A stretch of DNA of 37,678 nt, from positions 1 to 37,678 of the forward strand of contig LXFE01000207.1 in NCBI GenBank assembly GCA_001929475.1. Direction: 5' to 3'. The first letter of the stretch is position 1, and each line of letters starts with the position of its first letter. The DNA is from Neolecta irregularis DAH-3 (taxonomy: Eukaryota). Shown piece after piece: positions 1 to 37,445 of the stretch. Position numbers and translations under genes: made by a program. The notes beneath the pieces are model-generated. The model saw only the letters and a program-made list of their open reading frames with translations, made no database searches and was not told the origin of the DNA.

Positions 1-1
1 C

Positions 2-3000
2 CTCCAGAAACCCCTCGCCGCCTGCTCCGCCGGCCTCCAACACTCTCTGCGGCTGCTCTCGGACGACAGCCCTGCGCCCCTCCACGCCGCAAGAGCCATC
101 GGCTACGCACACGCCTACGCAGTCATCCTCGCAATGGCCCGCCACAACCCCCTCCTCTCCTCCCCACGACTCTTGAACGACACAATGGCCTTTTGCCAAG
201 ACCTTTGGCGCAAGCACGACCACACCCACTCCTGCGTCGCCTGGACTCTGCTCGCCGCTCTCCTCTGCAACGGCCCCTCCTTTTCAAGACCACTCCTGCC
301 CCTGCTGCTCCGGCTCTGGAACGCTGTCTCCTCAGACCCCTCCCTCTTTCTTCGCGAAGCTGCTCTCTCGTCCCTGTTCACCTTTCTCGCCCACAACTCT
401 TCCCTGCTCACCCAAGACGTCGCCAGACGCATCCTCTCCATCCTCTCCTCCTGCAAACGCCTCCCAAAAGATTCCCCCCCGCAACTCCGCGCAATGACCC
501 ACAGGCGTCTCCTTCAATGCCATGCAATAATCGCCTCCGTTTCAGCTACCCCCATCAGCCAAACAGACATCCTGATGGACGCCGTACATGTCTTTGCCGG
601 CCACAAAAGCACCCTTGCCATGGCCGCCGCTGCAAACACTTTCGACTCCATCTGGACAACTAAAGATCCGTCCCTTGGTCTCACCAGCACCGTTTCCAAT
701 TACACAGTCAAAACGTCAGACAGAGATATCGTTGCCCGCCACTGGCTGTCGCAGCAATTCGACGAGAATTTCCCAGAGCTGCTGCTCTACACCCCCATCC
801 TGCAAGCACCAGAATACGATTTCGCTTCCGTTTTAAATATGCTGCCCGACGGTTCGACACTGCACCCCCTCGTTCCTCCAGAAACAGCAAGCATAGACGC
901 TGCAATCGACATCTTTGTCCAATTATTCCCTCGAGAAACAGACAAGATCCAACAAGGCGTTCTAGAACAACTGGCTAGCTACATCGCGTCCCCGCATCTC
1001 GATAAAGATCCTTGTAGAAAAGTAGCGGTTTTGCTTAATATTTCAGTGGCTCTTGTCAGAGCATTCAAACAAAAGCTAAAATCGTCAAAAACATCAAAAT
1101 CTACCCGCACCTTTGAATTCGCCCTCGATCTTCTTCACGTACCTTTGTGCATTCTATCTGCTAATAATAGGTCGGATTAATGCATTCTGATGCTATTTTA
1201 CGGTTTGTGTCCGCAGAGGCTTTGGGAGCTCTTTGTAGCATGGGAGACTCGGCACTCGTCTCGTCAGAAATCCAACATCTAACCCAACAAATCGTCGACA
1301 ATCAGTCTCCTGAAGCACGCGCGGGTTGTGCGCTTGCCCTTGGATACATTCACCAATCCGCAGGCTCAATGACGGCCGGCCTCCACCTTCAAAAGATCTT
1401 TGGCGTTTTATTTTCACTCTGTAGGGATCCGCATCCCATCGTGCATTTTTGGGCTTTTGAAGGTTTGAGTTTGACCGTTGAATCTGCTGGAATTTCATTC
1501 AATTCCTATCTGATGAGCACACTCGCTCTCATTTCAAGTGTTTACACCTCAAATACGCATGACCCCGAAACAGCCGAAATCGCAATGTCAAATATAGGCT
1601 ATACGATGCCCCTTGTTCGATCTCTTGTTCGATGTCTAAATATCACAGTGGGAGTCCTGGGACCTGATCTTTTGGAAAATAGCAAAGCCAGAAAAATCAT
1701 CCAGACTCTTATTTTCCAGCTCGAACAAGTCGAGGATCCTGGTATCCGCGTCGAAATCGTCAAAACAAAAGAATTAGTTTCGTTATTTGTTCCTGGAGCG
1801 ATAAACATTGCCGAGTATATCTCGTTTTTAAAAGAGGGCGTGGACAATGGATCTGCGCGAGTCCAATTTGCCTCTCTCAAAGCGCTGCAACAACTGGTTA
1901 ACCGCTGCGCCCACGATGTATTTGGTCCGTCTCCATCAAATTGGCACCTCTGGGATATCCTCGATAAAACAACTCATAAAATTCAAGTACAAGAGATATT
2001 CAACAGTTGGATCCACCAAACAGCTCATCTTGAACCAGTCGCTTGGATCCGCCAGTGTCAAACAGTATTATCTAATTCAAACACGGACGAAGCGAAATCT
2101 TTAAAGGAATTAGCTGATCCTACCCTGGATGAAGAAACTGCTACTTTTGCAATTGATACGGACCCAGGGAAAACGACTGCGTATACTTGGCAAACCCAGG
2201 TTTTCGCCTTGGAATGTATACATTCTGTGCTCCAGTTGGTATCTCAACAAAGACCCGATTTAATGCAACTGGACCCTGGCAACGAACCCCAAAACCTGGT
2301 GACTCGCGTAGGTGAACTAGTTCGTATCGCATTTAATTCCTCGACAGCAGTTGTGCCCGGTCTTCGTTTAGCAGGCGTTGTCCTCCTTCAAGATATAATC
2401 AGGGTACCACATCCCTCTCCAACTATTTTCAACTTTAGAATTTTAAAAATGTGCAGGATCCAGATTTTGAGGATTTGGCTTTATTGGAACAGTATCAAGC
2501 GCAAATTGGATCTGCTTTGACACCTGCTTTTTCCGCTGATTCAACGGCCGATGTCGCTGCTCGAGCCATCGATGTTTGTGCAGACTTTATCGCTAGTGGA
2601 GTGGTCAAGGATGTTTGTAAAATGGGCCGAATACTAAAATTTCTGGTATCAGCTCTTGAAAATTGTAAAGGTTTGTTTTTTCAAATAGCTTGTTTTACTA
2701 ATTTTAGCGGAAACCCTTGTTATCGGGGAAATGAGGAACCTTGGTGAAACTGCAGAGACTATGCTTAGACTCGCCGTGGTATCTGCATGGGCAGAATTGC
2801 AGATTGCCAGTTGTACTCAACGTCACTTGCTAGATGTCGTCCGACCACATCTCTCAGACTTGTCCTTGTTATGGCTTCAGTCGTTGGCAGACTACGCTAA
2901 TCTCCGCTTTGGTCCACATTCGCCTGAATCGTCATCACAGCCAAACATCTCACTGGGAAATGAAGCCTTGTTACACGTTTATGACAAATCTTGGCATGTT

Positions 3001-4637
3001 TTGGTCGATGCGATTGCTTCTCTAGTTGACCGTGCGCCAGATATCGCCGCTAGAGCATTTGGAACTTGGGGCTCGAAATACATACAGACGGAAAATACGT
3101 CACCCCGCCCTGGAAAGATTTTTTATATCCTATTTGGTTTATGCCACGAGACCTTGTTAACCGCAACAAACCGTGTCGCCTCATCCGACGATTCTGTCCT
3201 TCGTATATTACATGTCTATGAGAAAGTCTTGCGGCCTTCTATATGCGGCTTTGAAATTTACCAAGATGAGATATTCTCGGAAACAATGGATTTGTTATAT
3301 CGACTTGTCTCTACTCAACGACTCGATTTCCAAAAAGTAGTGTTGAAAATTGCGAGGAATTTGGTTGTGGAACATCCTTCTTCCCATCCTATTCGGTCAA
3401 GACGAAAGTCAGAGGTCGACGTGGACCCTCGTTTAGATTTCTCACAAGATGTCGACCAAATATTTGAATTGGCGCGATTGACTAATATCGTTGTTTGCGC
3501 GAATTTTGATATCACGGAACGAACTAGTCACGGTGAATTCTCACCTCGTCGTTTAGCTTACAATGCAGTGATCGAGGCGCCGACGGCCTCGCTTAAATCT
3601 ATGGGATATCAAGGCTTGGATTCACTTGTCGAGATAATTGAAGTTTTCCCATCTGTTATAAAGGTGGATTTATACAATACGGTGCTCTATGTGTTTGCGT
3701 GTATGCACTTTTATACTGCAGTCTGATTATTCCAGGTCTTTTGGAACGCTCAGATATGGATGCGCCTATCCTTTCCAGTTTGACGGTCGTTTGCAGACAT
3801 ATAGTCACGACATCTATTGTTGATCCGGCTACCCGACAACCTCTCGAATTACTCACGCGAACTTTTCTTGCACAGATTATTCCATATTTTCAACGTTATC
3901 GGTACGTAAACTGGATATATCTCTTACTGTAGATATAATCCGACTAGTGCCAGTATTCACGCAGCTCATAATGCGCTGATGGTTTCGGTGATTGTGTTGA
4001 CTACTATTGGAGATAAATTGCTTCCATCTAGCGATTCGTCTATTGCCGATTTTATCGATGCTATTTCGCAAGGATACACTTCGAGTGAGGTTGTACATCA
4101 CTCGAAGCATTGCTAATTTATCTAGTTTTGGAAAGTGTCTTTGCAGTGTACACGGACTATCCTTCGATCAGCGTCTAGCAACCCAATCGCCTCGGAAATA
4201 TTCAATAGACTGCTCCCTTATCTGCTTGCCACCGTTTCACTCTACCCATTGAGCCATCCAACTGAAGGGTTTATCGAACTAGTCGGTCTCATCTTTGAAG
4301 ATCTCAACATTTCTTTCGAAAAAGGTAAAATTGATTTGTATGTTGTTGACAGCTAGTTCCTTTTGCTTTTGCCGTCATCTTACCCGCGCTCACTGCATGC
4401 GCAAGTAAGCCAAGAACATCTACCAAAGACAAATCAACCGTTTCAGCTATCCTTGTCACGCTAGCCACGTCAAATCCAAACGCCTTTAAAATTACTCTCT
4501 CAAGCCTTGAACCTTTTCAACAATCACAAATGGAGGAACTGGTAAGGACAAAATCGGGTAGAAAACGTTCAAGTGCTGGAATAATGGAAAATGCAACACC
4601 CACAATATCCTTGAAAACCAATTTCGACTTTGAATAG
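2..4637 (+). CDS. LAA1: HEAT repeat-containing protein 5 (HEATR5/Laa1/Sip1, AP-1 accessory protein), 5'-truncated, 8 predicted introns
   Basis: Frame is open from base 2. Motifs: SPEARAGCALALGYIH, DPHPIVHFWA, LVTRVGELVRIAF, DPDFEDLALLEQYQAQIGSALTPAF, C-terminal PTISLKTNF. Predicted introns 1139-1170, 2404-2438, 2671-2707, 3533-3568, 3701-3735, 3902-3932, 4090-4125 and 4325-4356 join the ORF fragments in frame. Stop TAG at 4635-4637. Confidence 0.9.
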
Positions 4638-4715
4638 AGTTACTCCTGGCGCTATGGTTTAATATCATATTTATGTATCTTGTTTGTACCTCGTGACGCT
4701 GACATCACCCTCCTG

Positions 4716-5111
4716 ATGAAGGCGAGACATCATGAACACGAAGACCAGGCATACGACGCTGTAACGCTTGAAACCAGAATCTAGTTGACCGTCAAGGCCA
4801 AAATGGGAGCTTTGCACGGCGGTGTTCGCTGGTACAATATATTTTCGCAATGTCTTAATTCGAGGTTTTTGTATTCTTGGCGATTATTGGCACAGCACAT
4901 TATACTTGGCCATTTTAGACACTTCCATTTAAAGGTGATTGAATACTCGAGACCGCTGATGCTAAGCCTTTCTGTCGTCCTCGATGGCAATCGGTGGGAT
5001 GGTTATTTACGCGGAGACATGTAAATCCACAGACTCGAATTTGTAGATATGCATGATTATGAAATGCAACGGCGTCTGAAACGAGAGCAAGACTGGGAGC
5101 CGAAATATTAA
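4716..5111 (+). pseudogene. Small spliced mitochondrial inner-membrane protein gene (Rcf3/HIG1-like), disrupted by a frameshift and an in-frame stop
   Basis: Exons 4716-4760, 4797-4831, 4865-4934, 4967-5020 and 5047-5111 give MKARHHEHEDQAYDAAKMGALHGGVRWFLYS / LAIIGTAHYTWPF*TLPFKAFLSSSMAIGGMVIYAETYMHDYEMQRRLKREQDWEPKY. A frame change is needed near 4876-4878 and TAG lies at 4916-4918. Family call is from recalled similarity (WP..R.QTLPFKAFL, two TM helices), not a search. Confidence 0.6.
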
Positions 5112-5167
5112 TTACATCTTGTTCCGTATGTTATTTACCAGTACCCTGTCCAATATACTCCCCAAAC

Positions 5168-6266
5168 CTAATCACCATGCCTGGAACAGCAAGTTTCCTC
5201 ATCACTCTCATCTGGTCGTAAGCGTTTGTATAACCTACGAGGAGGTTTTGTGCGGAAACAAGTAAACCATATAGCATAAAAGATAGCCATTGCTGTTAAA
5301 GTACCAGCTAGAAAAAGTAACAGCCAGTGCTGGCCAGCCTATGTTGTCATTCATGCATACAGACGACTCTGCACACCCAAAACACTAGTACCGCATCGCC
5401 TTCATGCCAGGATGATCCATTGTGGTTTTTAAAGTAGTCATATATATTAGGAGAAAAGTTCCTGGGCATCAGTTAAAAACAGGCAAACGCGTACTCTCCA
5501 GACATTATCAATCGAAGTCTGTTGCCCTCCGCTGCAATGCCAAATCGTATATAGTCTACCCATATCACACTCAAAAAAAGCGGCCCCGTAGACAACATGA
5601 CAGTGAGATACTGAATTGGCCAGTTGCGAGCATAATGCTTCAAACTCTTGATGACCTTGAGGAAGAATGGATGTCCCGGCATGGAGCCCATCACGTCATT
5701 GGAGATGCCGCTTGGATTTGTTCTGCGCGCCCAGGCACCGAATCTCAGCAACGAGTCAAACTGCTGTGTACATTCCTAAAGCTGAGCTTGATACATGGGG
5801 GTATAGATACCACGTCCAAGTCGACATATACCCCACCTTCATGAGCCAGCACTAGATACCGGATAACATCTGCCCGCTGTATCGGGTATGGATACCAGTC
5901 AAAGGTCTCCAGGAACCAGGGATAGTTTTGTGCTACAAAATCTCGCGACTTGGCGTCGGACCAGAGCTAACGAAAATGAGAAACTACTACTGGACAAACG
6001 ACCTTGAATTCATACGAGGGGTGCAGATCCTTACAGGACTGGTAAGATGTTTTCCATTGGGCGGGTATCTCATTGTCTTTCCAAGTGTGGTGTATTATTT
6101 TCGGAATGAGGCTAGTCGCGTTAGAAGGAGCAACAAGGTCGTGCTGGAGGATAGCGTCCGCGGAGCCGTCATCAAAGAGAAGGGAAAGCGGATTGAAGCA
6201 CAGATAGACCAAAAGAGCAATGACGACTAGGTTCACAGCCATAAAGACGACTAAATGTCTCCGCAT
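5168..6266 (-). CDS. SUR1: Mannosylinositol phosphorylceramide (MIPC) synthase catalytic subunit, glycosyltransferase family 32 (Sur1/Csh1/Imt-like), 4 introns
   Basis: N-terminal TM anchor, then IPKIIHHTWK, YPIQRADVIRY, GGVYVDLD (DxD), RRTNPSGISNDVMGSMPGHPFF, LTVMLSTGPLFLS, GSSWHEGDA and a C-terminal TM. ATG at 6266, TAG at 5168-5170. Confidence 0.9.
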
Positions 6267-6433
6267 GGCGCTGTGAGCGGAAAATGGGGGGCGGAAACTG
6301 CTTATGTGATGCAAAAATAGTGGTAGTACGTACGGGGTTGCTCCATTATCCTTTGCTCCCTCCCTTTCCTCGAGTCCAAAAGACAATTACAAGGTCGATA
6401 CTTTCATATCTATGCTACGTTGCAAGACATGCG

Positions 6434-6958
6434 TTACGAGTACCCCTTTTCCTTCAGGCCGCCAATCGACTCGATGTCCACGGTGTCAAACTGCCCGTAC
6501 GCAGGAGGACTGGAAGATTGAATTGGCGCAACAAAAGCGGCTCCACTCTCGCCCACCTGAACCACGACCACGCGGCCAGGAGTATACCGTCTTTCATCCG
6601 CGTCTTCTTCATCCGGGAATGTGATCTGGATCTCTGGAACGAGCAGCCCCTGTTGCATCGAAGATCGGGCGTGAATAAAGGAAAAGATTGAATGGCGTTC
6701 CGTCACCGGCAGCAAAGAGCGTTGCCGGGCTTGCTGACGCTTCTTGACAATCTTGAGTGCGACCAGATATGTCAAGCAGAAGAAAATTAAAATGAGGACA
6801 GTAATGATTGAACCGAATACGACTGGACCAGATCCAGTATTGTTGCTCATACTTGAAAAAATGTTGGCGACTCCGCTTCGGTTAGATAATTGGTTCGTAT
6901 TCATCGAGGCTGAACGAATGAATGACAGATGAAGGAGGAACCTCTGCAGGAGAACCAT
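6434..6958 (-). CDS. Conserved fungal hypothetical single-pass membrane protein with a PY (PPAY) motif
   Basis: Hydrophobic segment VVFGSIITVLILIFFCLTYLVAL followed by basic KIVKKRQQAR. Motifs VPEIQITFPDEED, GRVVVVQVGE, PPAY and IGGLKEK resemble a recalled uncharacterised ascomycete family. The first in-frame ATG (6958) follows a candidate acceptor at 6962. Confidence 0.7.
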   Translation of the reverse strand: MVLLQRFLLHLSFIRSASMNTNQLSNRSGVANIFSSMSNNTGSGPVVFGSIITVLILIFFCLTYLVALKIVKKRQQARQRSLLPVTERHSIFSFIHARSSMQQGLLVPEIQITFPDEEDADERRYTPGRVVVVQVGESGAAFVAPIQSSSPPAYGQFDTVDIESIGGLKEKGYS

Positions 6959-8252
6959 CAACTGAGAGGACCGGTGTCTTATTTTGAATACAAACGTAGA
7001 CAACAGCTCCTTATTTTGCTCACCGAAAGCTAACTATTTTGGGAAATTCTTGTTCGAGCAAATTTGTAGTCCCTGAAGGATTAGCTGGAGATTCGCTTCC
7101 GAATGGAAGTTCCGGAGATCGGTTCGAAAGAGCAGAGATTGAACGTTGTGGAACAGAACACAAGACGTAGCAAGGATTCAGATATCATACAACCTCTGAG
7201 CGAGAGCATCTGCTCGCCCGCCTTTCATGGTGTTCTAGCTATTCAGGATATTGCAGGTTCTTTCACTGAACCAATGGGTTACACTATATCCTGCCAGGCC
7301 TGATCTGACAGCTGGAAGAAGGAGGATTTCGGGTTGAATAGAATGGATACACTTCCCTGATGTGAAAGTTAAGATCTGAACTGTACGTATTAATAGCCTC
7401 AAACATGCTACAGCGACAATGCGTGCACCCTTATTTCTTGGGCCACTAAAGTTCATTCTGAGAAACTAACGTTTCTTGTACTTGGATACTCACATCTACG
7501 CGACATCTCGGTTTGCTCTTGAGTATTTGCATTAATCGTCAGCGCCGATCATTATATCCTCGTCTTTTGCGTCCGACGTTAGGCGAAGTAAGATGTGCCA
7601 GAATCTCATCAAGTGTGTTAAAATCACATTTGGTAAGCAGTTGGATCTATTTACGTGGTTGTGTCTTCTGCAGCCTGAAGCCAATACATATCAGTGAACG
7701 CAATTAGGAGGCTGTAAAATAGAACCGTGGTCTTCTATAGAAATGACAAGCGGGCAGGCCCGGAGATCACAGGAGCACATCCCAACGTGTCAGACCTAGT
7801 GAAGCGTGTAGGCTTAGAAGTCGAACTGAAACCTCCCCGTTCCAACCCATATAACGTCTTGTAGTATAGTCCCCGCATCCTCTCCTGAACCCGTGTCAGC
7901 AGAATCGAGATAGCGTTGTGTTGTGAGCACAGAGTTCGAGACCGTGCTAGGCTGGCAGCAGCTTCTTCAATCGCCAGAAAAATAGGCGGCTTTCACGTTG
8001 TTGAAACTTCCCAGTAAATTCATTTCACGCTCCAGCTCAGCTACTCCTGCCGCCATCCCCTTTCTCAGAATTTGTATAAGTATGCCTACATCCCCGGCTG
8101 GTTGGCTCTGTGTCTAATTCTTCATAGACTGCCCTCTTCCCCGGTACTTACGCCTGCCTAATCGCCCTCTGTCGATAAACCTATAATTCTGCCACACATA
8201 CACAACTCCAATCAATTGATTTGATCGTACATTCAGGGATCGATTCAAGCAA

Positions 8253-11200
8253 ATGTCTCTCCCAAACGCAGCTTCTTTAAAGGCCCAGCCCCTTAGTCAG
8301 GTATGTCGTATTTTTCCCTTGAGTATCTCCCTGTCGGTGACGTGGGAAGCACGTATACCGTTTTAGGCCTGTATATTTCCCCCTGGATCCATCAACTCCT
8401 TTACAATTGCTGACTGGACTAGCCCTCCGGATTCGCGGACAGCTTTAGTAATCGATCTACCGCTGGCAACAATTCTCAGCTTGAAGAACGAAACTCGCAG
8501 CCTTGGGCTACTGTTCCGCAAGGTCCTCAGAAATCATCTTCTCCATGGGCAATTAATAGCGTTCGAGCGCCAATTGGAAGTCGAGACGGTCAATCAAAGA
8601 ATGGTATTGTTAGAGAGTACTTCACTTACTAAATCTTCCCCTCAGATACCATAAACGTCCTCAGTGGATTTCCTGAAGACCAAAACCGTGCTCGAAATCG
8701 AAACTCGGCTGATTTCGAAAGTTGGAGTCGAGGGTTGCCACAGGGCACTTGGGGAAATGACACAGGAGTTGGTATGGAAGATAATTCAAGGTCCCTCGCA
8801 GCCTCCGCCAAACGACGTAGTGCTATCGAGCTTGGAAATCACAATGTATCTGGGCTTGTCGGGTTTCCCTAATCATGATAGTCACCTGAATTCCCCCGGG
8901 CTTCATCACCATTGAACCCGCTAGCTCGTTCACGCCAGCCAAGCGGAGCACAGGCTTCTGGTTTAATACATTCTGCTCAAGATTCTTATAACACCGGTGT
9001 CTCGGCATACAGTGATCTTGATGACCGGCATCGCGGTCGAAGCCTTGACATTGAAGAGGTTCATCCTCTACCCAAAATCCACCATCGCTTTACTACAGCA
9101 CCGAATCCAGATGATGAGGATCGTCATCTTAGTTCGGTCCTCCATAGTGCTTTAGAAGATGAAGACTCGCAGTCTATTCGACAAAGAGCTTTTCCAGGTG
9201 TTGCGCAAACCACTGGTAGTAGCTTGGCTCCTACTCGAGCAACTTCTCGCTATGAAGTGGTGCAAGCTCCCCCACGAGCAAGTTCCACACCTCCAGTTCA
9301 TCCATCTCTCCAGAATTTTGTTCATCCATCTGGACGAGCCTCACCTCTTGCTTTTAATCGAAGTTCTCGTGGGGATGAGGCAGATATGCTGGCGGGACTA
9401 CAACAAATGAGCATGAACTCGGTACGTGGATTTTCCCCAAATCTCATGCCGACTTTCCAGGATGACCATGAAGCCTATGGTATCGACAGGCGAGGCCTGG
9501 CCGGTGGTTATGGTCACAGTGTAACTAGTCCCTATGCATCGGGGGCTGGGTATTACCCAGATTATGGCTTTCAACGAGCGATTCTTCCAGAACCGGAAGA
9601 TTCGGCTTATTCTCGGGGATATTATGCAGGCGATGCACTCTATACGCCACCTCTTGATGTCCCGGGTTATGCCAGTGGGTACATGGATTACCGTCCTCGA
9701 GGATTCATCCGACCGGCTTCAGTTGATCCTATTGGAGAGCTCCACTGTGCTACTCCTTATTATGGCACTGGTAATATATCACCTCTACGACTGCAGAATG
9801 CATCTCCACTAGGTCGATCAGTTCAAGGTAGCCGTCTTTCCATCACGCAACCAATGATTTTATAGGACGACTGCCGCCTGCTACAATGCGTGATCCTTTG
9901 CTTCCACTGTCTATACATGCAAGACATGCGAGTAATTACGAACAATATGGCGCAAGTGTGCGGTCGTATTCAGATCCTTTTGGGCCGGCTCTTCACAATC
10001 CCAATTCCGCACGCCGATTTGATGAGATCAGCCAGAATCTTAGGAGCCCGCTTTTAGAGGAATTTCGCAATAACAAGAATAAAAAATACGAACTCAAAGT
10101 ATTTATCTACTCTTGCCGTTCTGATCATGTAGGATATATTTGGACATATAGTCGAATTCAGCGGGGACCAACACGGATCTCGGTTCATTCAACAAAAACT
10201 TGAGACTGCAAACAGTGATGACAAGGAGGTTGTCTTTAATGAGATTCTGCCAAATTCACTACAATTGATGACTGATGTTTTTGGCAATTATGTTATTCAA
10301 AAGTTCTATGAACATGGGAATCAGATGCAAAAAACAGTTCTCGCTCGTGAAATGGAGAACCATGTCTTGCAGTTATCTCTTCAAATGTATGGTTGCCGTG
10401 TTGTTCAAAAGGTTCCTTCAGATTATTACCAAGTTGACGAACTAGGCTCTTGAACATGTACTCGTTGATCAGCAAGCGGCTCTGGTCAAAGAGCTTGAGG
10501 GTCATGTTCTTCGTTGTGTTAAAGATCAGAACGGAAACCACGTCATCCAAAAAGCGATCGAGCGTGTCCCGGTTCACCATATTCAATATATTATCACGGC
10601 CTTTCATGGCCAAGCATATGCCCTTGCAACTCATCCTTACGGATGTCGTGTAATACAACGAATGCTAGAATTCTGCAAGGAAGCACAGGAACCTCTTCTT
10701 GAAGAGCTTCATCGATACATGCCGAGTCTCATACAAGACCAATACGGGAACTATGTGGCTCAACACGTACTCGAACAGGGTGCTCCTCACAACCGTACAC
10801 GGATTATCAATGTTGTTCGAGGTCAGGTTTTGACACTGTCGAAGCACAAGTTCGCTTCAAATGTAATTGAGAAGTGTATTTGTTATGGGAGTATTGAGGA
10901 ACGACAAGCACTAATCGACGAGGTTTCTGAGCCTACAATGGATGGGTATGGTCATTTAAGTCATATTGCGCTCATCGAGTTAGCTCTATCCCTCTCGTTG
11001 CCATGATGAAAGACCAATTCGCTAATTATGTTGTTCAGAAGATGCTTGATGTTACGGAAGGAGATCAGCGTGATGATCTTGTTCAGCGAATTCGACCACA
11101 TCTGCAACAACTCAAGAAATATACCTATGGAAAACACCTCGTTTCTAGTATGTCGTCTTTTCCCTATAAACACTTACAATGTAGTTGAACGTTTGATGTA

Positions 11201-19600: not shown

Positions 19601-20096
19601 AACTTTGTTCTTCCAGAAACCCAAAAGATCCACGGCAGTCTAGAACGAAAAACGACATCCATTGGATTGACCCGCCTTTTGGTTGAGTCGGAAGCCATGC
19701 AGGCCGGTGGGCCTTATGCTGAGTTATGGTGAAGTCATTGAGCATTCATAACTCATTAACAGGCATCTAACCCTCATGACAATCTTGAAGCTCTTCGAAC
19801 TACCTCAAGAAGCTTTTGATGGACAAGACATTGAGGAAATTGATCCGGACTTGGATTTCCAGGTATCCTTTGCAAAGCTGGGCACTGCGGCCAGGCTGAA
19901 GCCGGATCATTTTGTGGCAATTCCAGATCCGAAGAGATACCTTGCAGAAAGACTCGGCCAGTCTAATCAGTCCGCAGGGGGAAAGGTAATGCGTGTACTA
20001 TAGGTTTACGCTTATGAACAGATTGCAATTGCAATTCAAACCAGACTTCCTCAAGATGCACAATCAGTTCTATCATCTTATGGCCTTGTTTTCTAA
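16677..20096 (+). CDS. CSE1: Importin-alpha re-exporter Cse1/CAS (exportin-2), 14 introns, one GC-AG
   Basis: MEAQLLPCLQQTLNPVTARRAEQALRSAE, IBN_N motif RQAAALFFKNFIKRAW, DLNCQDLPEFFEDN, ELFEEDPIEFIRRDLEGSDSDTRRRAS, ISKNPSNPRFNHFTFESLG. Stop TAA at 20094-20096. Confidence 0.95.
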
Positions 20097-25693: not shown

Positions 25694-27735
25694 TCAAAGC
25701 AATCCTCTTCGTTCTTTTTCCATTCCCAACCAGACATACTGGGCTGGGTCATTAAAGTAGTAACTGCCAATCCTGGAATCATTTTCATGCGGACTTGGCA
25801 AGTCTTCCAGCTGGAAATACACATCTGGAAAACAGGCCTCAGTATTCCCTGCTACTGAAAGATTATCTAGAAATTCATACTTTGTAATTTCGTTTCTGGT
25901 CGATCAGTTACATAGGGCAAGCACAGCAACATACTCATCTTTAAGAAATCCAAGTTGCAAGGATGTTTTGCAAACTCGATCTCGAGCTGCTTTGACTGCT
26001 TCTCTCATTTCGGAAACCCAATGACATAACTCTCCTCTTGTTTGGAGGGTATCCTCGGCCCATTTGAGCTGTTGTTTTGCGTTCTCTAAACGGTGCCATT
26101 TCATCGTTCGAAGGAGAGTTGCCTGGACAGAAAGAAACACGACTCTTTCCAAATACTTTTGAGTAACTAGTGTGCAGTGGATTTGATATTCGCTTCGATA
26201 AATGTAAAGTTCTTGCTCCTCATGATTTTGAGTGATCGTAGGAAGAGCCGGGTGGGTATAAGACATCTTGATAACTGCAGCTAGTATTGGTTCTTCGGTT
26301 CGATCGAGCATTTCATTGATTTCAGCGAATATAGTCTGGAGCTGGGTTGTCGGTGATACTTGTACCTGAAGGAAGACTCGCACTGTCTCAAAGGGCGCCA
26401 GATCACCTTTTATCAGCATATAATAACAGGGAAGGCTTGGTTTACTGATCATTATCGTATCAGAGAGAAAACACTCCGTGCTAGTGATTACATTCGCAGC
26501 TATGAAGCCCTCCTCTAGCAAAACCTCTAACTGAATGTTTTGAAAAGGCTCAAAACCAACACCAGCGCTCGCGTAATGACAAACATGTCCAAGCGCTTCC
26601 AGTTCGTCACAGTTGATATATGCACCTCCATGAGCGCCGCTTCTGGATAACTTAAAGAGGTTTGGATCATTCTGAAGAGCTCCTATGCCGAGAGAAAAGA
26701 TACTGATTCCGTGTCGTGAAGCATCATGTTCGATGAACTCATCATTACCGTCAGTAAGAATAAAAATAGAGCTGTATCTATGGTTGGATACGCGAGAGGT
26801 ATTCAACCTTTCGATTGCCTTACGGATAGCACGATCGAGACCAGGTCTGTCTCCAAGGCTGGCTGTCGTACCTTCGATTGTTTCCACCGCCATATCTTTA
26901 ACCTCGTCGGTAGCAAATGCAGGTTTAAATATCTCGGATGACATGGTTGGGCCATATGTCATAATTCCGAAAGTATCGCAATCATTAAAAGAAGTGAGCA
27001 GTTGCCGCAATACATGCTTCGAATAAGAAAAGAAAGGAGAAATGCTATCTGAGATATCCCAGAGAATGACAGCGTCAAGACCTAGTCGTATTGGAAGTCG
27101 ATCTGAAGGATAATTGGCTGTTAGAGAGATCATTGCCATAAGCGGGCCACCCTGCGATGGGACATATGCTGACTCGGCCGATACCTCAATTGAAAGACAA
27201 GGTTGAATGGGTATAACAGGCCTTGCTAGGTATGTATTTTTGGTTTTTGGTCGACTTCTCGGTGACCTTAGGCTGGAAAGACTGAGAGTTCTGGCCAATT
27301 TACTTCTGGTCTTTATCGGAGGTGGAAGCGGCATGCTCGCGGGGAGCTGTCGTCTCGGTGTTTCTAATGCTTGGATTATCTCTTTCCTAGACTCAATTCT
27401 CAAGTTGTCAAAGTTCCGCCCCATTCTTTTTTCTGGATACGAACTCTTTTTACCCGTGATTCGACTCCCACAAATAAGACAAAACTGACGTTTGAGACAA
27501 TACCAAAGGTAAACAAACGCACGTTAGATGATAGACATCGATGATGTAGACGATGACGACAGGGAACAGTAATAATTGCCTCTGTTATGTCATCTAGCGG
27601 ACATCCACAGACATGGCAAAGGGTTGACTTGGAATAGCAAGTTTGACTGATATCAAAGACAGGTAATGAGACATTAGGATGAGCCTGACCATTGTGTAAA
27701 GATAACAATGATAACTTCAGGTCGATATCGGACAT
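25694..27735 (-). CDS. RING-H2 finger plus von Willebrand A domain protein (putative E3 ligase or scaffold), 3 introns
   Basis: Splicing 27485-27522 completes CHVC...CRHRLHHRC...CLIC (C3H2C3). vWA motifs DAVILWDISDS (DxSxS), IFILTDG and ISIFSLGIG. Further introns 26407-26445 and about 25896-25934. Stop TGA at 25694-25696. Confidence 0.8.
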
Positions 27736-29077
27736 AGTGCCCAAGCAATGGAGATTATATTAGAATGCGAAAGCAAAAGTCTCAAACAGTGCGCGATAGG
27801 TTTTCGATAGTAGTTAACATTTGTCTATGTTTTTAGATCCTTGATACTCAAATCCCTTGCAACAGGATTAAAAGGAGTTAAATATTGCTCACACACGGAG
27901 AAAACTTAGAAACCACGAGCGAGCACTTTGCATGGTTGAGTATTTACAGGTTTTTCTGGGTAATATGAACAGCATACGCTGCTGCAATATTAATGTGTTA
28001 TTTTTTTTAGTCTCCACTAGTGAATCGTAATGCAAAGCTGGAACTGCTTTTCTACTGTAGTATCTCCTTAAAATCATATCTCATACTTTTTCAATAGAAT
28101 CAAGATAAATATAGTCATTCAACAGCTTGAGTTGCGAGAAAAAGTGATAGCTCACCATATGATCATAACTGTATACCAGAATCTAAATTTTCTTCGGCAT
28201 TCGTACAAAATATTGTTTCTTCATTCCGAACAATGATCAAGTTTCTTGGTGGTATTATGTTGTAGGCGCAGCGCTCCGATGGACCCTAGGAGAGCTCGCC
28301 CCTGGCACCTACCTCGCGATTCTTGCTTGTCTTTCAAAATTCCAGTCAGTGAAACAACGGCGATATCTAGAAATATTATCGCGGACACCAACGAAACGTA
28401 TTCAAGGAAGCGATTGAATATATTTTCTCCCATTGGAGAAACCTCATCAAGAGATACCGTACTGTTACAAGCTGGAACAAGTCGCAAAGACTACACCAGA
28501 CTTGCTTAGTATATACATTTTTCCTGCAAAACTGGTGACAGTCTTTTTCAACGCATGTTAGAAGACACACGGGAATGGCTACAGTCCTCTTTGATTCGGA
28601 GGATACCGCACCTGACAAGGGGTGTTTCTAGCGGCGACAATCCGGCTATGTTATTGTGCAGTGATAGACTGCGTGAAACAGAGCCACTGGGCTGTCAATC
28701 AACCCTCTTAAACTTGTGAACACTTGACATGGTGCTATTTCCACCAAATTGGAATTTAACTACGAGGTGACAACATCGCGAGAAATTATGAGAATGTCTC
28801 AGTCACAATCTCATCATGGGGCAGTTATATTTTCACTTGAAGGGCATAAACCCATGGAACCGACGTTGTGAATACTTGGCTGATCCCTTGAGGACCCTGG
28901 ATAGCCACCTGCGTCGAGAGTAAAATATTTTGCATGATATGAAAGGCTGTGAGACGAAAATCATCTTTTGTCTCAGACCGTCTATGGTATTTTCTTGTCC
29001 CTCATTTTAGGTGTACAGAATAAAGAAATCGTCCAGCCCTCGATTTTCATCTTGAAATCCTCTTCCTGTTTGCAAAT

Positions 29078-30845
29078 ATGGTTCAAGAGCAGACGTCATG
29101 GCTGGTGTACTTCTGTGCTCTATTTGCTTCCATTGGAGGGTATACCACTTTCTCGTTCATTTACCGACATCTAGACTTATTTTTGGATTCGATGTTGGTT
29201 CTATATCAGGTCTTCTCAACATGCAAGACTCAAAAGACAGATTTGGGTATTTGAAAGCTTTCATCTATCTTAATTGGAAATAGTGATGTCCCGGACAAAG
29301 CTCATCCTGGACACTTTGACTTCGGAGATTTCCGAACTGGTATAATAGTAGGTGCCTTTTCTGTGGGAACCTTCCTCGGATGCATGATCGGTGGGCCCTC
29401 GGCAGATAGGTTAGGTAGACGCAAGGCTCTTATCCTTTGGAGCGCGATATATGCCGTCGGTGTTGTCATTCAAGTATTGCTCACAATCTTGGACGACAAA
29501 TCTGATTGCCAGTTCTTCTCCGTCGATAAATGGTTCCAGATTGCTATTGGACGTTTCGTCTCAGGTTTAGGAGTTGGATCCCTCAGTGTCCTTGTACCGC
29601 TTTACACCAGTGAACTAGCACCCAAGAAAATCAGAGGGATTCTGGTCGCGACTTTGCAACTGACTTTCACTTTTGGAATATTCCTCTCGTATATTGTTAA
29701 CTGGGCAACAAAACAGAGACAAGGTGCAACTCAGTGGCGTATTCCAATTAGCTTGTGTCTATTTTGGGCCGCCGTTCTTGGTATTGGAATGTGTTTTGTT
29801 CCTGAAGCTCCCAGACAGCTCTACATGGATGGAAAGTACGACGAATGTAAAAAGGTTCTTGCAAAAATTCGTGGCCTCACTTCGGATGAAAATCTGGTTC
29901 AAGAAGACTACAATGATCTTGAAAAGACGATAGAAACTGAACAAAAGTCTGGGAAAGGTTCCTGGAAGGAGTGTTTTACCGGTGAACCACGTATGTGTTA
30001 TCGGACCGTTCTCGGAATGACCATTCAATCTGTGGGGCAACTCTCTGGCGCTAGTTTCTTCTGGTGTATCCCTATCAATTCTCCATTTTCAAACTGATTG
30101 AAAAGATTACGGCGTAAATCTATTTTCAACCATTGGTATGGGAGATGCATTTGTCACCCAGATCACCATCGGAGGCCTTCTCTTCTTCAGTACCATTGGT
30201 GTTGTCTTCCTCATAGACCGATACGGACGACGAAACTGTCTCTTCTGGGGGGCCGCTTGGTGCTCTGTTATGCTGGTTATCTTTTCAACTTTGGGTCTCA
30301 ATATGACACAGAATGACGGAACAAACAATCCCAAGATTGCATCCGCAATGATCTGTATGCATTGTCTTGAATTTCTTGTCTAATCTGTAGGCTTTGTTTG
30401 CCTCTATATTCTTGGTTATGCTACAACTTGGGGGCCTTGCGCTTTCGTCGTCATCTCCGAAACATATCCTTTCCACCTTCGAGCCAGGTGCATGTCCATT
30501 GCTACTGGTTGCTCCTGGCTGTGGAATATTTTCATCGCTCTCTTCTCTAAAGCGATTCTCAACAAAATTAAGTATTCATATGGATTCCTCTTCGCTGGAG
30601 CCAATATAATTGGATGCATCACTGTTTACTTCTTTCTCTACGAAACCAAGGCTCTTACTCTTGAACAAGTCAATGAAATGTACATGGAACCTAAGCTAAA
30701 GCCATGGCAATCACACCGATGGATTCCGGCACGAGGAGAAATGAAGCAAAATAAAACAGCTAATTCGCTTCCATCTTCCTCTCGAAACTCCCTCGACTTG
30801 AGCTATACTGATATGGAACTTGAGAAAGTTGTATCAGAAAATTAG
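29078..30845 (+). CDS. MFS sugar porter (hexose transporter-like), 5 introns
   Basis: FASIGGLIFGFDVGSISG, ADRLGRR, GRFVSGLGVG, ELAPKKIRG, VPEAPR, IDRYGRR, WGPCAFVVISETYP and YETKALTLEQV. Confidence 0.92.
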
Positions 30846-31241
30846 CTAGAAAGAAACTAGGTATATCTTGGGATATAGGATTCCGTTAAAGTTGTGTTCT
30901 GCTGGCGGGATTACATTATCTTTCAGAACAATTTGTGTTTTTTACCCTCCAAAAGGATTTCTTTTTGTAATATAGTTAGAATGAGCTTGAGAGATGGATT
31001 AGTTGAAGCTGCGTTCGGCAACCACCAAAAAGAAATATCATGGTATTCTCAAATCGGGAAATATGATATTCTTTATGGAAGATTTCGCAGCGATGAGCGA
31101 TTTTATCGGGTCCTCGTCCTCCCAAATTCTTCAAGAAAGAAAAACTGGTCCACACCTGTTTTTTTATTTTTGCGATGACACCTGAGAGAAATCACCTAAG
31201 TCCCTCTCCCGCAACACCCACAACATAAAGTCGAAAATAGA

Positions 31242-31435
31242 TTTGGTGCATGCCAAACGTGTTGGATGGGGATATTATAAAAATAATTACATATATTGTA
31301 CTTTTATGTAGTGTACCAAACACGCGATTAAAATTTGAATTCGAAGAATTGCCAAATTCTATAAAATTTGGTGCGCACCAAACGCGCGCTTAAAATTGGA
31401 ATTCAAAGAATTGCCAGATTTCCAGAAATTTGTCA
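31242..31435. repeat. Degenerate ~62-bp tandem repeat (3 copies) with a palindromic core
   Basis: CCAAAC recurs at 31253, 31316 and 31378. Copies 2 and 3 align closely (ACCAAACaCGCGatTAAAATTtGAATTCgAAGAATTGCCA vs ACCAAACgCGCGctTAAAATTgGAATTCaAAGAATTGCCA). Perfect 16-bp palindrome TTTGGTGCGCACCAAA at 31367-31382. Confidence 0.8.
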
Positions 31436-32610
31436 ATATGCATCTGGTCACGACATTCCACTTTCTCACAGACCATTTGAAGATGATTCTTCTTGTTACG
31501 ACAGTGTCTTACTGGCTTGACGCCCGCGGTCGCCAGTCTACCTCCAGGCTCAGTGCAATTTGTGCCACCTCAGGCGTCTTTTGTGCGATCTTATCTAGAC
31601 AAAAGGCCTGGAAAAAGAAAGGCTGTACGAGATATTTCACGATTAAGTTTCTCGTGAAAATCTCCTAATATCTATGAAGCTCTCCTCGACGCACTTTCGA
31701 ATATGACAAAATTAAAGAAACGGCGTCTTCCTAAAGCGACAAGACAAATCAGAAGAGAACAGTCACATCGATTTAATTTCATTGTTTGGAGCTTAAGAAC
31801 GACACGTGTGCCTGCCAAGCCAACATCTTTTGTGAATCACTGTCTTTAAAGCGTCTATGGACTGGTTATAGAATATGACATCAGTAGAAATATCACGAGG
31901 AGAGCAACTACTGTGAGAACTCGAATTTCTCAAGCTTCAGTAATTGATATCATCATTGAGGCGATTGGAGAAGGCTACGGGAAGATTGTAGTATCTTTCG
32001 AGATCATGACAGGAATTTGTATGTAATCTCAACTCCATCAATACATATGTTCTTTTCAATAGCTTTCATTTGACTTTAGTCCCCCATGGCATGTAAATCG
32101 CCAATATCAAAGAATGGCACCCTGATATCAACTGAGTAGGCATAACTAATCGCATCTGTGAGGTATTCCTTCAATTCTCAACCATTCCCGGTATCTACAA
32201 ACAACGACGATTGCTTTGATCGTTGAAACAAAACAAATACATGCTGAGGCACATATAATAATATGAATCCATTAAGGAGCTACGATAAAATCCTATTGTG
32301 TTTTTCTCCTAGAGATGTCTTTAGAAATACTGATAATCTCGAGATAAAATTTTAGGTCAGAATAACATGTGTACGTAACACAGGGTTGTGATTGTGGAGT
32401 TTCCAAGATATGACGTAGCTTGCGAAAAACCCCCCATAGTTAGATTCTGAGTTTTATGATTTATAGTAGTCAGACAAAAGCCAAAAAACAAAAACAAGAG
32501 ACTTTAAATGTCCTTCCATGACATATGTAACGATAAATAGAGACAATAAGATAACAGAGAACGTCAAACCGAAGATGAGGAGTGATGAAGAACACATCCA
32601 ATCCCTGATA

Positions 32611-33694
32611 TCATATATCAAATGGTGGTGCCGTGACAGAAGTGGACGTGGGTTTATTTACGTTTTCCGTATACAAGTTGTTGAAATTTCCTGGTGGGGA
32701 GTATTCGCAGACTAAATGATAACGTCCAACTGGGGAACTACCACAAGATGTCACCCAAGCACAGCCCAATTGCGTAGTACTTTGCCAGACTCTAGGAAAA
32801 TGAGCGCGATTTCAGACAATGAGAAACTTACACTTGAGTAAAATGACCTGTCACTCCACTACCAGTACTCGTGTCAAAATTCCAGTTTTTAATCTCTGCA
32901 TACCACATCCAGACATAAAATGCAGGATTATTACCGGATCCAGCTGCAAGATTTTCCCCATAGATGTTGTTCGAGGTATGTGCAAACCCGCACGTTTCCG
33001 CATTCTTCATAGCAGCAGCAGCTAATGTAGCTGACCAAGTCAACGCTGGAGCATTGTGGAGCGCTCGATATTTGTTATGCTCGGTCAGAATGGTCTGTTG
33101 AATGCTGATCGGGGTTGTAGGCAAGGCTGTATGTGAGGCTGTATGTGAGGCTGAATGCTTGACTGTATGCGAGGCTGAATGCTCGGCTGTATGAGAGGCT
33201 GATTGCTTGACTGTATGCGAGGCTGAATGCTCGGCTGTATGTGAGGCTGATTGCTTGACTGTATGCGAGGCTGAATGCTCGGCTGTATGTGAGGCTGAAG
33301 GCTTGACTGTATGCGAGGCTGAATGCTCGGCTGTATGTGAGGCTGAATGTTTGGCTGTATGTGAGGCTGTGTGCTCTGTTGTATGCTTGGCTGTATGTGA
33401 GGTTGTCGACAACGTTGCCGACTTGGGAAACGGACAAGTGATGCCGTCTTTTTTCACCGAGCAGAAGTTCCAAAGCTTTTCACACACCAAGTTAAAGTAA
33501 TTAGTACAACTTCCGATGTCGTCCTGCTTTCTTGACGCATGACAGGTATTAACAATCATGAGACACCGTTCAACCGCAAAACAACACTGAGCGTTAGAAG
33601 ATGTTGCATTGAGGTGGTAAGAGTCGTAGGGAGGTAAATTTAATGAGGTGGCAACCAAAGCAAGAAGCGAAATCGCAACAATGGAAATCTTCAT
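32611..33694 (-). CDS. Secreted CAP/SCP/PR-1 family protein with an N-terminal 8-Cys domain and a His/Ser/Ala repeat linker, 1 intron
   Basis: Signal peptide MKISIVAISLLALVATS. CAP motifs HNKYRALHNAPALTWS, YGENLA, WYAE, GHFTQVVWQSTTQLGCA (after intron 32792-32831) and VCEYSPPGN. Stop TGA at 32611-32613. Confidence 0.92.
33125..33400 (-). repeat. Coding minisatellite: 23 x 12-bp units with 24-bp and 48-bp higher-order periods
   Basis: Plus-strand units GGCTGTATGTGA / GGCTGAATGCTC and variants encode (SHTAEHSA-SHTVKxSA)n. Confidence 0.92.
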
Positions 33695-34059: not shown

Positions 34060-36528
<2,469 letters not shown>

Positions 36529-36588
36529 GTTTAGTGAATTGTGTTGGAGAAGTGTGGTTGGGTTAGGGTTTTTCCACCTCCAACGTCT
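36529..36588. promoter_or_regulatory. 60-bp divergent intergenic region between the NCL1 and LCP5 start codons
   Basis: NCL1 ATG at 36528 (minus strand) and LCP5 ATG at 36589 (plus strand). Confidence 0.7.
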
Positions 36589-37445
36589 ATGGACGACCAA
36601 TTTCTGCAAACCATATCTGATTCGCTTTCTTCGATCTCGACGTCTTTGCCGGTACCAGAGGACACTAGAAATGGAATATCTTTACTGATACTTAAAAACG
36701 ATCTCCACCTTTCATATCTCCAAAACCTTGTTTTTCTCATTCTGCTGCGACTTCGTGGCGAGGAGATACAAGATCACCCTGTTGTATGGCAATTGATTGA
36801 AAATCGCGTCTGGATAGAACGCGGGATAAATCCCTTGGAGACAAAGCTTCGTTATAGTATTGAAAAACTGTTGAAAGCCGCCGAGAAGAGAGATATCGTG
36901 AATGGTGTTTTTGCAAATTTTCTAAATGCTAATCCGTAGAAACCCCTGATGCCCTCTTGTACAAGCCGAACCCATCTGCTCTAGTATCCCAAGTTGCAGA
37001 TTCTGCAGAAACAGAAACAGTATATCGCCCGCCCAAGATCAGCAGCATGGCTCCTCCGACCTCTGCTCCCCGTCCAAGGAAGAACCGGCTCGTGTCCGAC
37101 TTTATCGATGCGGAGCTTTCCCACGCGCCGATTGAGGAGCCTAGTATCGGGTCCCACCGATCACGCATGTCGACTAAAGAACGTCGTGACCAAGATAATC
37201 GCAAGAGATATGAAGAAGATAATTTCATACGATTACCCGAGGAGAAAAAGAAGAAGAGAAGAGCTCAAGGCCTTGACGACTTTGATGTGGATATAGGTGG
37301 ACCTTACAACTTTGAACAACAACCATCTCTTGCAGAAAAAAGCCGAAAGACCAACGAGGGTTCCAAAACCGCTACAAGAATCGGAGCGGCATTTAATAAA
37401 CGCAGAAAGACGCTTGATAATCGAAAGAAACGGAAAAATAAATAG
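36589..37445 (+). CDS. LCP5: U3 snoRNP protein Lcp5/neuroguidin (Sas10/Utp3/C1D family), 1 intron
   Basis: NGISLLILKNDLHLSYLQNLVFLIL, ENRVWIERGINPLETKLRYSIEKLL, LYKPNP, VYRPPKI and YEEDNFIRLP. Intron 36905-36939. Confidence 0.9.

Follow-up and report, generated by a model that had tools for sequence, protein, structure and literature searches.

Short U2-type introns with weak terminal signals on a contig of the early-diverging ascomycete Neolecta irregularis

Introns of S. pombe and Pneumocystis, which like Neolecta belong to the Taphrinomycotina, have a modal length of about 45–55 nucleotides (nt). They are U2-type introns with GT-AG ends and a CTRAY-type branch site near the 3' end, and show no classical polypyrimidine tract from the branch to the AG. 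The same description applies to the introns considered here, which lie on a contig of the early-diverging ascomycete Neolecta irregularis DAH-3 (LXFE01000207.1; its 37,678 base pairs (bp), analysed as a whole, are called the window below), but these are shorter (median 36 nt), have G at donor position +5 in 47% of cases and end in RAG in 32%. All counts for Neolecta refer to this one contig. Tiny introns of 15–30 nt are found in Paramecium and in nucleomorphs, and for the ciliate introns Jaillon et al. reportedly described, in 2008, a translation-coupled surveillance of retained copies. The Neolecta introns resemble this class in forming a narrow length class near the physical minimum, in the weakness of their internal signals and, as a faint hint, in a depletion of lengths divisible by three (7/38). 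They differ from it in their minimum of 31 nt, the ciliate and nucleomorph class lying below about 30 nt, and in their clear fungal-type branch motif.

Other fungi provide further points of comparison. Many introns per gene, as here, are reported for Pneumocystis in the available part of PMC7940399. Core genes of Fusarium have introns of 42–529 nt with G at +5 in 93%, CTRAY in 91% and YAG in about 94%, according to the accessible portion of PMC5677156, whereas the corresponding values in Neolecta are 31–46 nt, 47%, 55% and 68%; A at +3 is similarly frequent in the two (74% in Fusarium from the same portion, 79% in Neolecta), and both have GT-AG termini, CTRAY as the main and TTRAY as the secondary branch motif, and pyrimidine tracts located mostly 5' of the branch. 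RAG acceptors amount to 5.7% in Fusarium and to about 11% in other fungi, the latter figure being cited in that portion from Kupfer 2004. Cryptococcus neoformans is likened to Neolecta by the variation in its 5' splice sites and in its branch points and by a high intron density, as far as the available text of 10.1101/2021.03.19.436190 goes, yet its mean intron is 63 bp (PMC8476143), against 36.7 nt here; basidiomycete-like control loci analysed in this work have a median of 57 nt and 82% G at +5. Across a survey of 61 species the shortest species mean was 56 bp, as given in the accessible part of PMC3033335. As judged from their termini and branch motif, the introns of the Neolecta contig are U2-type introns of near-minimal length, weak at both ends. 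Weak signals in intron-rich lineages and an informative intron length are both known already; the difference here is one of degree.

Intron calls and terminal signals

Introns were called with a purpose-written protein-to-DNA spliced aligner, scored by BLOSUM62, gaps and a flat intron penalty, which demands a GT or GC donor and an AG acceptor and is blind to all other intron positions; AG acceptors are thus partly given by construction. Between 5 and 13 homologues were supplied for each gene, and the alignments of Cse1 and MTO1 were repeated with all 16 donor dinucleotides permitted, under which their 21 introns were recovered identically. Where no homologues had been fetched, exon continuity was checked on PDB structures and Pfam profile coordinates, and the remaining predictions were supplied by a self-trained gene-finder (codon usage and position weight matrices, PWMs, from verified introns) at a strict threshold. 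Other gene-finder settings were dropped, a heavier intron penalty splitting genes and permissive settings fusing them and adding spurious introns. As a control of the method, the same aligner was run on Cse1 loci of metagenome contigs.

The strict gene-finder pass gave 52 introns, 50 of them within 31–45 nt, in keeping with the large majority that a first-pass annotation of the window had placed in this range. Its total of about 70 was not recovered, and since several regions are unmodelled (about 4.7–8.2, 22.5–23.4, 27.4–29.2 and 30.9–32.6 kb) a total above 52 is possible; Pfam searches with 10 open reading frames (ORFs) from these regions returned no usable match. Independent support exists for 38 of the 52 introns, the other 14 being gene-finder predictions only. 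It comes from spliced alignment in 30 cases, from continuity on a PDB structure in three and from Pfam profile coordinates in five. By gene the supported introns comprise 14 in Cse1, seven each in MTO1 and HEATR5, two each in TSC2 and PUF and one in the GDP-mannose transporter, the remaining five being those backed by Pfam coordinates. At all 38, excision gives back an uninterrupted conserved protein.

The supported introns measure 31–46 nt (median 36, mean 36.7, standard deviation 3.4), 37 of them within 31–45 nt. Their donors vary as freely as had been claimed, with 29 distinct hexamers among 38 introns, and several of the hexamers singled out in the first-pass annotation recur among them: GTACCT at 1139, GTACCA at 2404, GTTTGT at 2671, GTTGAC at 16738 and GTTCCT at 10412, the last placed exactly on a Pumilio PDB structure. 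Others on the same list stand on different ground, GTAGCC (9828) and GTGTTT (36905) belonging to gene-finder-only introns, GTTGTA being the alternative donor at 4090, and GTCGTT (6002–5967, minus strand) and GTTCGA (23160–23196) being unconfirmed candidates only. Among the 38 donors, +3 is A in 30 and +4 is a pyrimidine (C or T) in 28, while G at +5 and T at +6 are each found in 18; further into the intron, pyrimidines occupy +7 in 27 and +8 in 29. In the control loci, which are basidiomycete-like and yielded 72 introns of 44–81 nt (median 57) with the same aligner, G occupies +5 in 82% and T occupies +6 in 74%, so that the Neolecta frequency at +5 departs from the control with a binomial p of 1.5e-6. 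The dinucleotide itself is GT in 34 cases, GC in three (17784, 22136, 23912) and GA in one (21723). These four non-GT donors had been proposed from the outset, and at each of them no other reading brings back a conserved protein block. An excess over the fungal norm had been claimed for them as well: three GC donors in 38 compare with 1.3% overall in the accessible part of PMC3033335 (p=0.013), a difference that stands against the literature value and loses its force against the control loci, which are equally rich in GC donors.

At the acceptor, the base at -3 is T in 14 introns, C in 12, A in 10 and G in two, so that AAG or GAG acceptors, described earlier as frequent, make up 12 of 38. The branch site behaves differently from either end. 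Exact CTRAY occurs in 21 of the 38 supported introns, most of the others having one-mismatch variants (TTGAC, TTAAT, CTTAC, CTCAT), and non-CTRAY branch sites are therefore frequent (17/38), as had been stated. Nevertheless the branch signal itself is strong: of 35 introns 21 contain CTRAY, whereas 2000 shuffles of the interiors gave 3.6 on average and 10 at most, an excess of about sixfold that marks the branch motif as a genuine and dominant signal. Polypyrimidine tracts, which had been called mostly absent, are present in 28 of 35 introns under the lenient definition found in the accessible portion of PMC5677156, and 14 of 35 contain an uninterrupted C/T run of 6 or more. Intron interiors are 39% T, and it is only in the 6–11 nt separating the branch from the AG that tracts are mostly absent.

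Lengths divisible by three are somewhat rare (7/38, p=0.033; 11/51, p=0.05), and five of those seven introns contain an in-frame stop while two do not. A U12-type assignment was considered and dropped. In that class the 5' splice site is held rigidly to (A/G)TATCCTT and the branch site resembles TCCTTAAC, and no donor of the 38 fits; the nearest, GTATCC at 30066, continues with CT and is accompanied by a U2-type ACTGATT branch. Scanned for Rfam families and for tRNAs, the window gave no matches, and hence no small nuclear RNA (snRNA) gene within the contig.

Spacing, relatives and modes of recognition

Where CTRAY is exact (21 introns), the distance from the branch A averages 27.3±2.5 nt to the first intron base (range 23–34) and 8.0±1.3 nt to the last (range 6–11). 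The acceptor was initially the first AG with its G at least 6 nt beyond the branch A in 20 of these 21, AGs at +3 or +4 from the branch A being passed over five times. The sole exception was also the least secure junction, a predicted NSUN2/Trm4 intron at 35639–35595, for which the rule pointed instead to an acceptor at 35607. With that acceptor, four extra residues fill Pfam positions 116–119 and the profile score rises from 30.0 to 33.2 bits; since Pfam backs the corrected acceptor, no exception is left among the 21.

Leave-one-out estimates of information were made on 35 introns, a set in which donor 4093 was still used and the NSUN2 intron still had its 45-nt form. Outside the GT the donor carries 1.4 bits, and outside the AG the acceptor carries 0.0 bits. 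The donor retains little beyond GT and the A at +3, and the acceptor nothing beyond AG. The best branch score averages 5.5 bits in true introns and about 2.2 bits in decoys, and the length score (against a uniform distribution over 26–60 nt) is 1.1 bits in true introns against a decoy mean of -1.7 bits. When the sense pre-mRNAs of four genes (29 true introns) were searched for competing GT-AG pairs, 1385 decoys were obtained. Scored by signals only, 40 of them matched or exceeded the median of the true introns; once length was added, 12 did. Length-guided splicing, as suggested in the first-pass annotation, is consistent with the tight spacing, the low information at the intron ends and this reduction in decoys, though distance alone is insufficient. 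The relaxed spliceosome also suggested there, which would involve losses of U2AF, SF1 or U1 proteins or altered snRNAs, stands as a conjecture.

Relatives of the Cse1 gene extend the comparison beyond the contig. When intron positions and phases are compared on one reference protein, 11 of the 14 Cse1 introns have the same position and phase in each of three uncultured ascomycete loci (L011, L025, L001), and nine are common to the basidiomycete-like loci L007 and L016, where they measure 48–81 nt. Recurrence in other genomes confirms the junctions independently, and the ancient conserved positions, together with the greater length in basidiomycete-like loci, indicate old introns that have shrunk and not new insertions. 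In a Cse1 tree seven metagenome loci form a clade on a long stem inside Ascomycota, with a support of 100 in the Shimodaira–Hasegawa-like approximate likelihood ratio test (SH-aLRT); Neolecta and Saitoella group together (SH-aLRT 95), and the placement of the metagenome clade relative to that pair and to other subphyla is not settled in this tree. Eight metagenome loci, including the seven of the clade, provided 72 introns on which 3 or more of 4 homologues concur, all of them orthologous copies of about 13 positions in related contigs and therefore non-independent. Of these 72, 69 are at most 46 nt long (median 34), their donors have C at +4 in 51% and G at +5 in 24% with 83–91% pyrimidine at +7 to +10, TAG acceptors make up 78%, YTRAY is present in 62, and the distance between branch A and 3' end is 6.6±1.6 nt. 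Lengths divisible by three number 24 of 72, which is no depletion. The Cse1 positions shared with the basidiomycete-like loci, where the introns are longer, and the same shrinkage in the uncultured clade imply a trait that is either old or convergent. As a separate observation on an uncultured ascomycete clade (SH-aLRT 100), nine metagenome Cse1 loci (L001, L002, L003, L011, L017, L018, L019, L020, L025) have introns of 30–44 nt in which the donors are of the GTAC type, +7 to +10 form a pyrimidine stretch rich in C, and the acceptors are mostly TAG. Scanning metagenomes with the public Cse1 model P0006 brought up no close relative of Neolecta, 53% identity being the best match, and scanning them with P0246, the HEATR5 model, brought up no relative.

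Taken together, the introns of the contig are probably ordinary U2-dependent spliceosomal introns of near-minimal size that are recognised as branch-anchored units, a reading drawn from sequence features. Each intron would be recognised as one unit, by intron definition, with the branch site as its anchor, and the observed architecture of 31–46 nt and fixed spacing is compatible with such a mode. The 3' splice site would be whichever AG comes first at a distance of 6 nt or more beyond the branch A, and AAG and GAG acceptors may be tolerated because this first-AG rule sets the acceptor. The 5' splice site would be a GTA within a restricted stretch 5' of the branch; if GTA within that stretch sets the donor, positions +4 to +6 would be left to vary and GC and GA donors would become possible. 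Under branch-anchored recognition, spacing would carry part of the information that is borne by base-pairing in other fungi. A broader version, which we put forward tentatively and regard as doubtful, is that in Neolecta and the uncultured clade the donor pairing at +4 to +6 and the preference at acceptor -3 have been largely given up, that a branch-anchored ruler, reaching about 27 nt in the 5' direction and 6 nt or more in the 3' direction, would set both sites, and that this would have let ancient introns shrink to 31–46 nt, the lower limit of fungal U2-type splicing, with GC, GA, AAG and GAG sites as routine.

A number of considerations weigh against branch-anchored recognition. The true donor is the sole GT in the interval 20–36 nt upstream of the branch A in only 7 of 21 introns, and A at +3 separates true donors (30/38) from competitor GTs in the distance window (4/21), so that the earlier proposal that short introns are defined mainly by donor-to-branch distance is too strong. 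Twelve decoys remain despite the addition of length, and some unmodelled contributor is therefore needed. Branch points were assigned from motifs, and in the 17 of 38 introns that have no exact CTRAY the spacing is not reliably measurable. All 38 junctions rest on homology or on Pfam or PDB continuity, and as a sample of one contig they make the PWMs small-sample estimates. AAG acceptors are unevenly distributed (Cse1 7/14, MTO1 2/7, HEATR5 0/7) and A at -3 also occurs in 17% of control-locus introns, so that the RAG excess is real in the window and its generality uncertain. The control loci contain 7 GC donors in 72, from repeated orthologous positions, and for this reason no genome-wide GC rate is extrapolated from the contig; with both A at -3 and GC donors shared by the controls, these two features are less distinctive than literature values suggest. 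Finally, the narrow length range might reflect deletion bias and be no quantity that the spliceosome reads.

This last point is the core of the explanation that nothing special is at work, a fission-yeast-like spliceosome operating on introns that deletion bias and a high intron number have made short, with length unread. It fits with the ancient origin of introns that are merely shorter than their basidiomycete counterparts, and with a depletion of lengths divisible by three that is weak in Neolecta and does not appear in the uncultured clade. For intron-rich lineages, the accessible parts of PMC2483917 and PMC3033335 report splice and branch signals of lesser strength, and the latter also has intron length as already informative across fungi. 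On the other hand, the branch-to-acceptor rule successfully predicted the NSUN2 correction, the branch is held within ±2.5 nt relative to the 5' end, and the mean of 36.7 nt lies far from the 56 bp of the shortest species mean. Spliceosomes studied so far would, to our knowledge, show poor tolerance of a GA donor and of a G frequency as low as 47% at +5. We consider this explanation improbable. Somewhat less improbable, though still unlikely in our view, is a spliceosome that has been re-specified and not relaxed, with a 5' code of GTA, then C/T, then a pyrimidine stretch, read by an altered U1 or U6 snRNA or a U1-associated RNA-binding protein, so that the signals would appear degenerate only against GTRNGT. 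Pyrimidine-rich sequence downstream of weak donors aids U1 recruitment via TIA-1/Nam8 in other organisms. GTAC-type donors recur in both Neolecta and the uncultured clade. The pattern is clearer in the latter, where the pyrimidine content of +7 to +10 and the C at +4 stand beside little G at +5, and in Neolecta C or T predominates at +4, +7 and +8. However, the downstream pyrimidine bias in Neolecta is modest, the donor information over +3 to +8 is just the 1.4 bits given above, and the metagenome introns, as copies of few positions, are not independent witnesses to such a code.

It could also be asked whether wrongly picked junctions make the signals look degenerate. The gene-finder-only introns (14/52), one gene-finder junction that was off by 12 nt, one donor that is ambiguous by 3 nt, an aligner that permits AG acceptors alone, and a public annotation that differs at one Cse1 intron all lend this some substance. 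Yet the same aligner, blind to +3 to +8 and to -3, still yields conventional signals in the control loci; 38 junctions are backed by homology, with the recurrence of 11 of 14 Cse1 positions and phases in independent genomes; and the odd donors GTTCCT, GCATGA, GCATGC, GCAAGC and GAAAGT are each pinned by conserved residues. An artefact of this kind is very improbable indeed.

Introns gene by gene

At least 13 genes, some of them unnamed, were placed on the contig by Pfam and PDB matches. Those with a name are the C-terminal half of Laa1/HEATR5 (1–4637, plus strand), a PUF/Pumilio protein (about 8250–11190, plus), TSC2/tuberin (11737–16380 and beyond, minus), Cse1/exportin-2 (16677–20096, plus), MTO1/GidA (20225–22457, minus), a Vrg4-type GDP-mannose transporter (up to 24130, plus), a cation-efflux protein (24433–25507, plus), a VWA-domain protein (minus), a sugar transporter (up to 30845, plus), a CAP-domain protein (minus) and NSUN2/Trm4 (34060–36350, minus). 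The stretches 4700–8250, 27400–29250 and 30900–32600 contain ORFs of 60–200 codons on both strands that have no Pfam match, apart from a weak RING-finger match at 27403–27759 (minus). Neighbouring genes differ sharply in intron density: Cse1 has 14 introns per 962 codons, and the adjacent TSC2 has a 3.5-kb exon (12883–16380, minus) with no supported intron.

The Cse1 introns, all on the plus strand, are the most fully documented. The first, at 16738–16775 (38 nt, GTTGAC..CAG), is backed by 10 of 13 homologues and its position is common to L011, L025 and L001; the second, at 16919–16953 (35 nt, GTTGGT..AAG), is backed by 12 of 13. All 13 homologues agree on 17122–17164 (43 nt, GTACGT..AAG), 17336–17379 (44 nt, GTACCC..CAG) and 17581–17618 (38 nt, GTACAT..CAG), and also, despite the GC penalty, on the GC-AG intron at 17784–17817 (34 nt, GCAAGC..AAG), for which the GT alternatives all break the frame and which is retained under any-donor alignment. 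The same full agreement extends over 18364–18403 (40 nt, GTGTGT..AAG), 18654–18693 (40 nt, GTACAT..AAG), 18943–18979 (37 nt, GTATAA..AAG), 19106–19143 (38 nt, GTACCA..AAG), 19322–19359 (38 nt, GTATGT..TAG), 19540–19578 (39 nt, GTGAAT..TAG) and 19729–19762 (34 nt, GTGAAG..CAG), and the last intron, 19986–20021 (36 nt, GTAATG..CAG), was found with 8 of 13 homologues and in 3 of 3 of the any-donor run. The public Cse1 model P0006 ('Importin-alpha re-exporter', 625 amino acids), which is 100% identical to ORF 17785–18459, begins at 17899, just past the GC-AG intron, and is devoid of the first six exons. It splices 18339–18396 in place of the homology-backed 18364–18403 with its AAG acceptor; the other seven introns agree.

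MTO1, on the minus strand, contains the most unusual junctions. Its GA-AG intron at 21690–21723 (34 nt, GAAAGT..TAG) was selected with 10 of 10 homologues when all 16 donors were permitted, was chosen even at a penalty of 14 and in 3 of 3 of a second any-donor run, and gives on splicing a protein block that matches HIGLEAYPAGR of the homologues. A 22-nt GT-AG and a 37-nt GC-AG alternative near 21700 have lower scores, and neither restores HIGL.AYPAGR. The intron at 21010–21042 (33 nt, GTAACT..CAG), skipped by 10 of 10 homologues, is in frame, free of stops if retained and situated within a 405-codon ORF, so that it was revealed by homology only; an ORF-based reading would run translation through it. 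The GC-AG intron at 22100–22136 (37 nt, GCATGC..AAG) has 9 of 10 homologues and was retained in the any-donor run, and the GT alternative 3 nt upstream of its donor at 22136 would turn a conserved 'CD' into 'Y'. The remaining introns of the gene are those at 20500–20534 (35 nt, GTATTG..CAG) and 21799–21836 (38 nt, GTATAC..CAG), each with 10 of 10 homologues, and at 22009–22043 (35 nt, GTAGGC..AAG) and 22233–22267 (35 nt, GTGCGT..CAG), each with 9 of 10.

In HEATR5 (plus strand), three introns are backed by 12 of 12 homologues: 1139–1170 (32 nt, GTACCT..TAG), which is also in the public model P0246, 2404–2438 (35 nt, GTACCA..TAG) and 2671–2707 (37 nt, GTTTGT..TAG, branch ACTAATT). These are followed by 3701–3735 (35 nt, GTATGC..CAG; 8 of 12), by the shortest supported intron, 3902–3932 (31 nt, GTACGT..TAG; 11 of 12), and, further along, by 4325–4356 (32 nt, GTAAAA..TAG; 8 of 12), for which alternatives break the frame. 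Between the last two lies 4093–4125 (33 nt, GTACAT..TAG), with a fixed 3' end and an ambiguous donor: the alternative at 4090 (GTTGTA, 36 nt) was chosen by 7 of 12 homologues and 4093 by none, but 4093 is used by P0246 and has the better PWM score. Within 620–4634 (plus), a further intron of P0246, 1014–1046, had support from 0 of 12 homologues and was left out of the counts. The first 2 kb of the window (1–2000), which is HEATR5 coding sequence, has a G+C fraction of 0.51, against 0.41–0.49 elsewhere, and a GC skew of -0.26.

For the PUF gene (plus strand), structure 3gvo_A supports two introns. The exons around 10412–10445 (34 nt, GTTCCT..TAG) correspond without a gap to residues up to 115 and from 116, and those around 10946–10983 (38 nt, GTATGG..TAG) to residues up to 276 and from 287, with 10 unaligned residues between, equal in number in the PUF protein and in 3gvo_A. 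Towards the 5' end the gene-finder alone predicts 8604–8645 (42 nt, GTATTG..CAG), 8846–8881 (36 nt, GTATCT..TAG), 9828–9865 (38 nt, GTAGCC..TAG), 10099–10132 (34 nt, GTATTT..TAG) and a long 122-nt intron at 8301–8422. The strong signals once ascribed to this last are indeed legible in the letters (GTATGT..GCTGACT..TAG), while the intron itself is a gene-finder prediction that has no homology support. In TSC2 (minus strand), 12729–12763 (35 nt, GTATGT..GAG) was recovered with 4 of 5 distant homologues and 12840–12882 (43 nt, GTATGT..TAG) with 3 of 5. A candidate at 16346–16316 (2 of 5) was left out of the counts, and many would-be introns within the 3.5-kb exon, each suggested by single distant homologues only, were dropped as gap-bridging.

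The GDP-mannose transporter (plus strand) contributes the third GC-AG intron, 23912–23949 (38 nt, GCATGA..CAG), located by residues 278/280 of PDB entry 9s35_A and 281/283 of 5oge_A, with a single split codon between that encodes the expected Ser. Two more in this gene, 23624–23663 (40 nt, GTGCGT..TAG) and 23758–23794 (37 nt, GTATGA..AAG), are gene-finder predictions. Pfam coordinates support the longest supported intron, at 24614–24659 in the cation-efflux gene (plus, 46 nt, GTATTA..CAG), where Cation_efflux positions 1–37 and 39–198 fall on the flanking exons with a split codon between. They also support two introns of the sugar transporter (plus), 30066–30105 (40 nt, GTATCC..AAG; Sugar_tr about 274 / 276) and 30355–30390 (36 nt, GTATGC..TAG; Sugar_tr continuous within about 4 residues). 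Two supported introns of NSUN2/Trm4 (minus) are 34310–34345 (36 nt, GTATAC..TAG; PUA_NSUN2 continuous, about 53 to 54) and, by the branch-to-AG rule and Pfam, 35607–35639 (33 nt, GTATGT..GAG), whose acceptor replaces that of the discarded 45-nt version and lies 12 nt nearer. Gene-finder predictions in the same gene are 34196–34231 (36 nt, GTATAT..CAG), 34754–34788 (35 nt, GTACAA..AAG), 35257–35294 (38 nt, GTTTGT..AAG) and 36047–36083 (37 nt, GTATGC..TAG), and similar predictions were made in the VWA-domain gene (25896–25934, minus, 39 nt, GTATGT..CAG), the CAP-domain gene (32792–32831, minus, 40 nt, GTAAGT..TAG) and an unnamed gene (36905–36939, plus, 35 nt, GTGTTT..TAG).

Novelty and consequences

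A literature search found no published account of these features, genome-paper supplements, which may hold basic statistics, having been outside the search. The main text of the Neolecta genome paper (PMC5309816) has 0 uses of 'intron' or 'splic', though it does mention sequencing of RNA; intron counts and use as a data source are the sole contexts in which other papers, in their accessible parts, cite Neolecta. One practical consequence concerns annotation, as standard gene-finders would miss both the 33-nt in-frame, stopless intron and the GA-AG intron of MTO1. Should the pattern hold genome-wide, the introns of Neolecta would be the shortest class described in a non-microsporidian fungus, coupled with a high intron density and terminal signals of unusual weakness, and the organism may then serve as a natural system for determining the minimal sequence need of a U2-type spliceosome and the share in recognition that is contributed by spacing.

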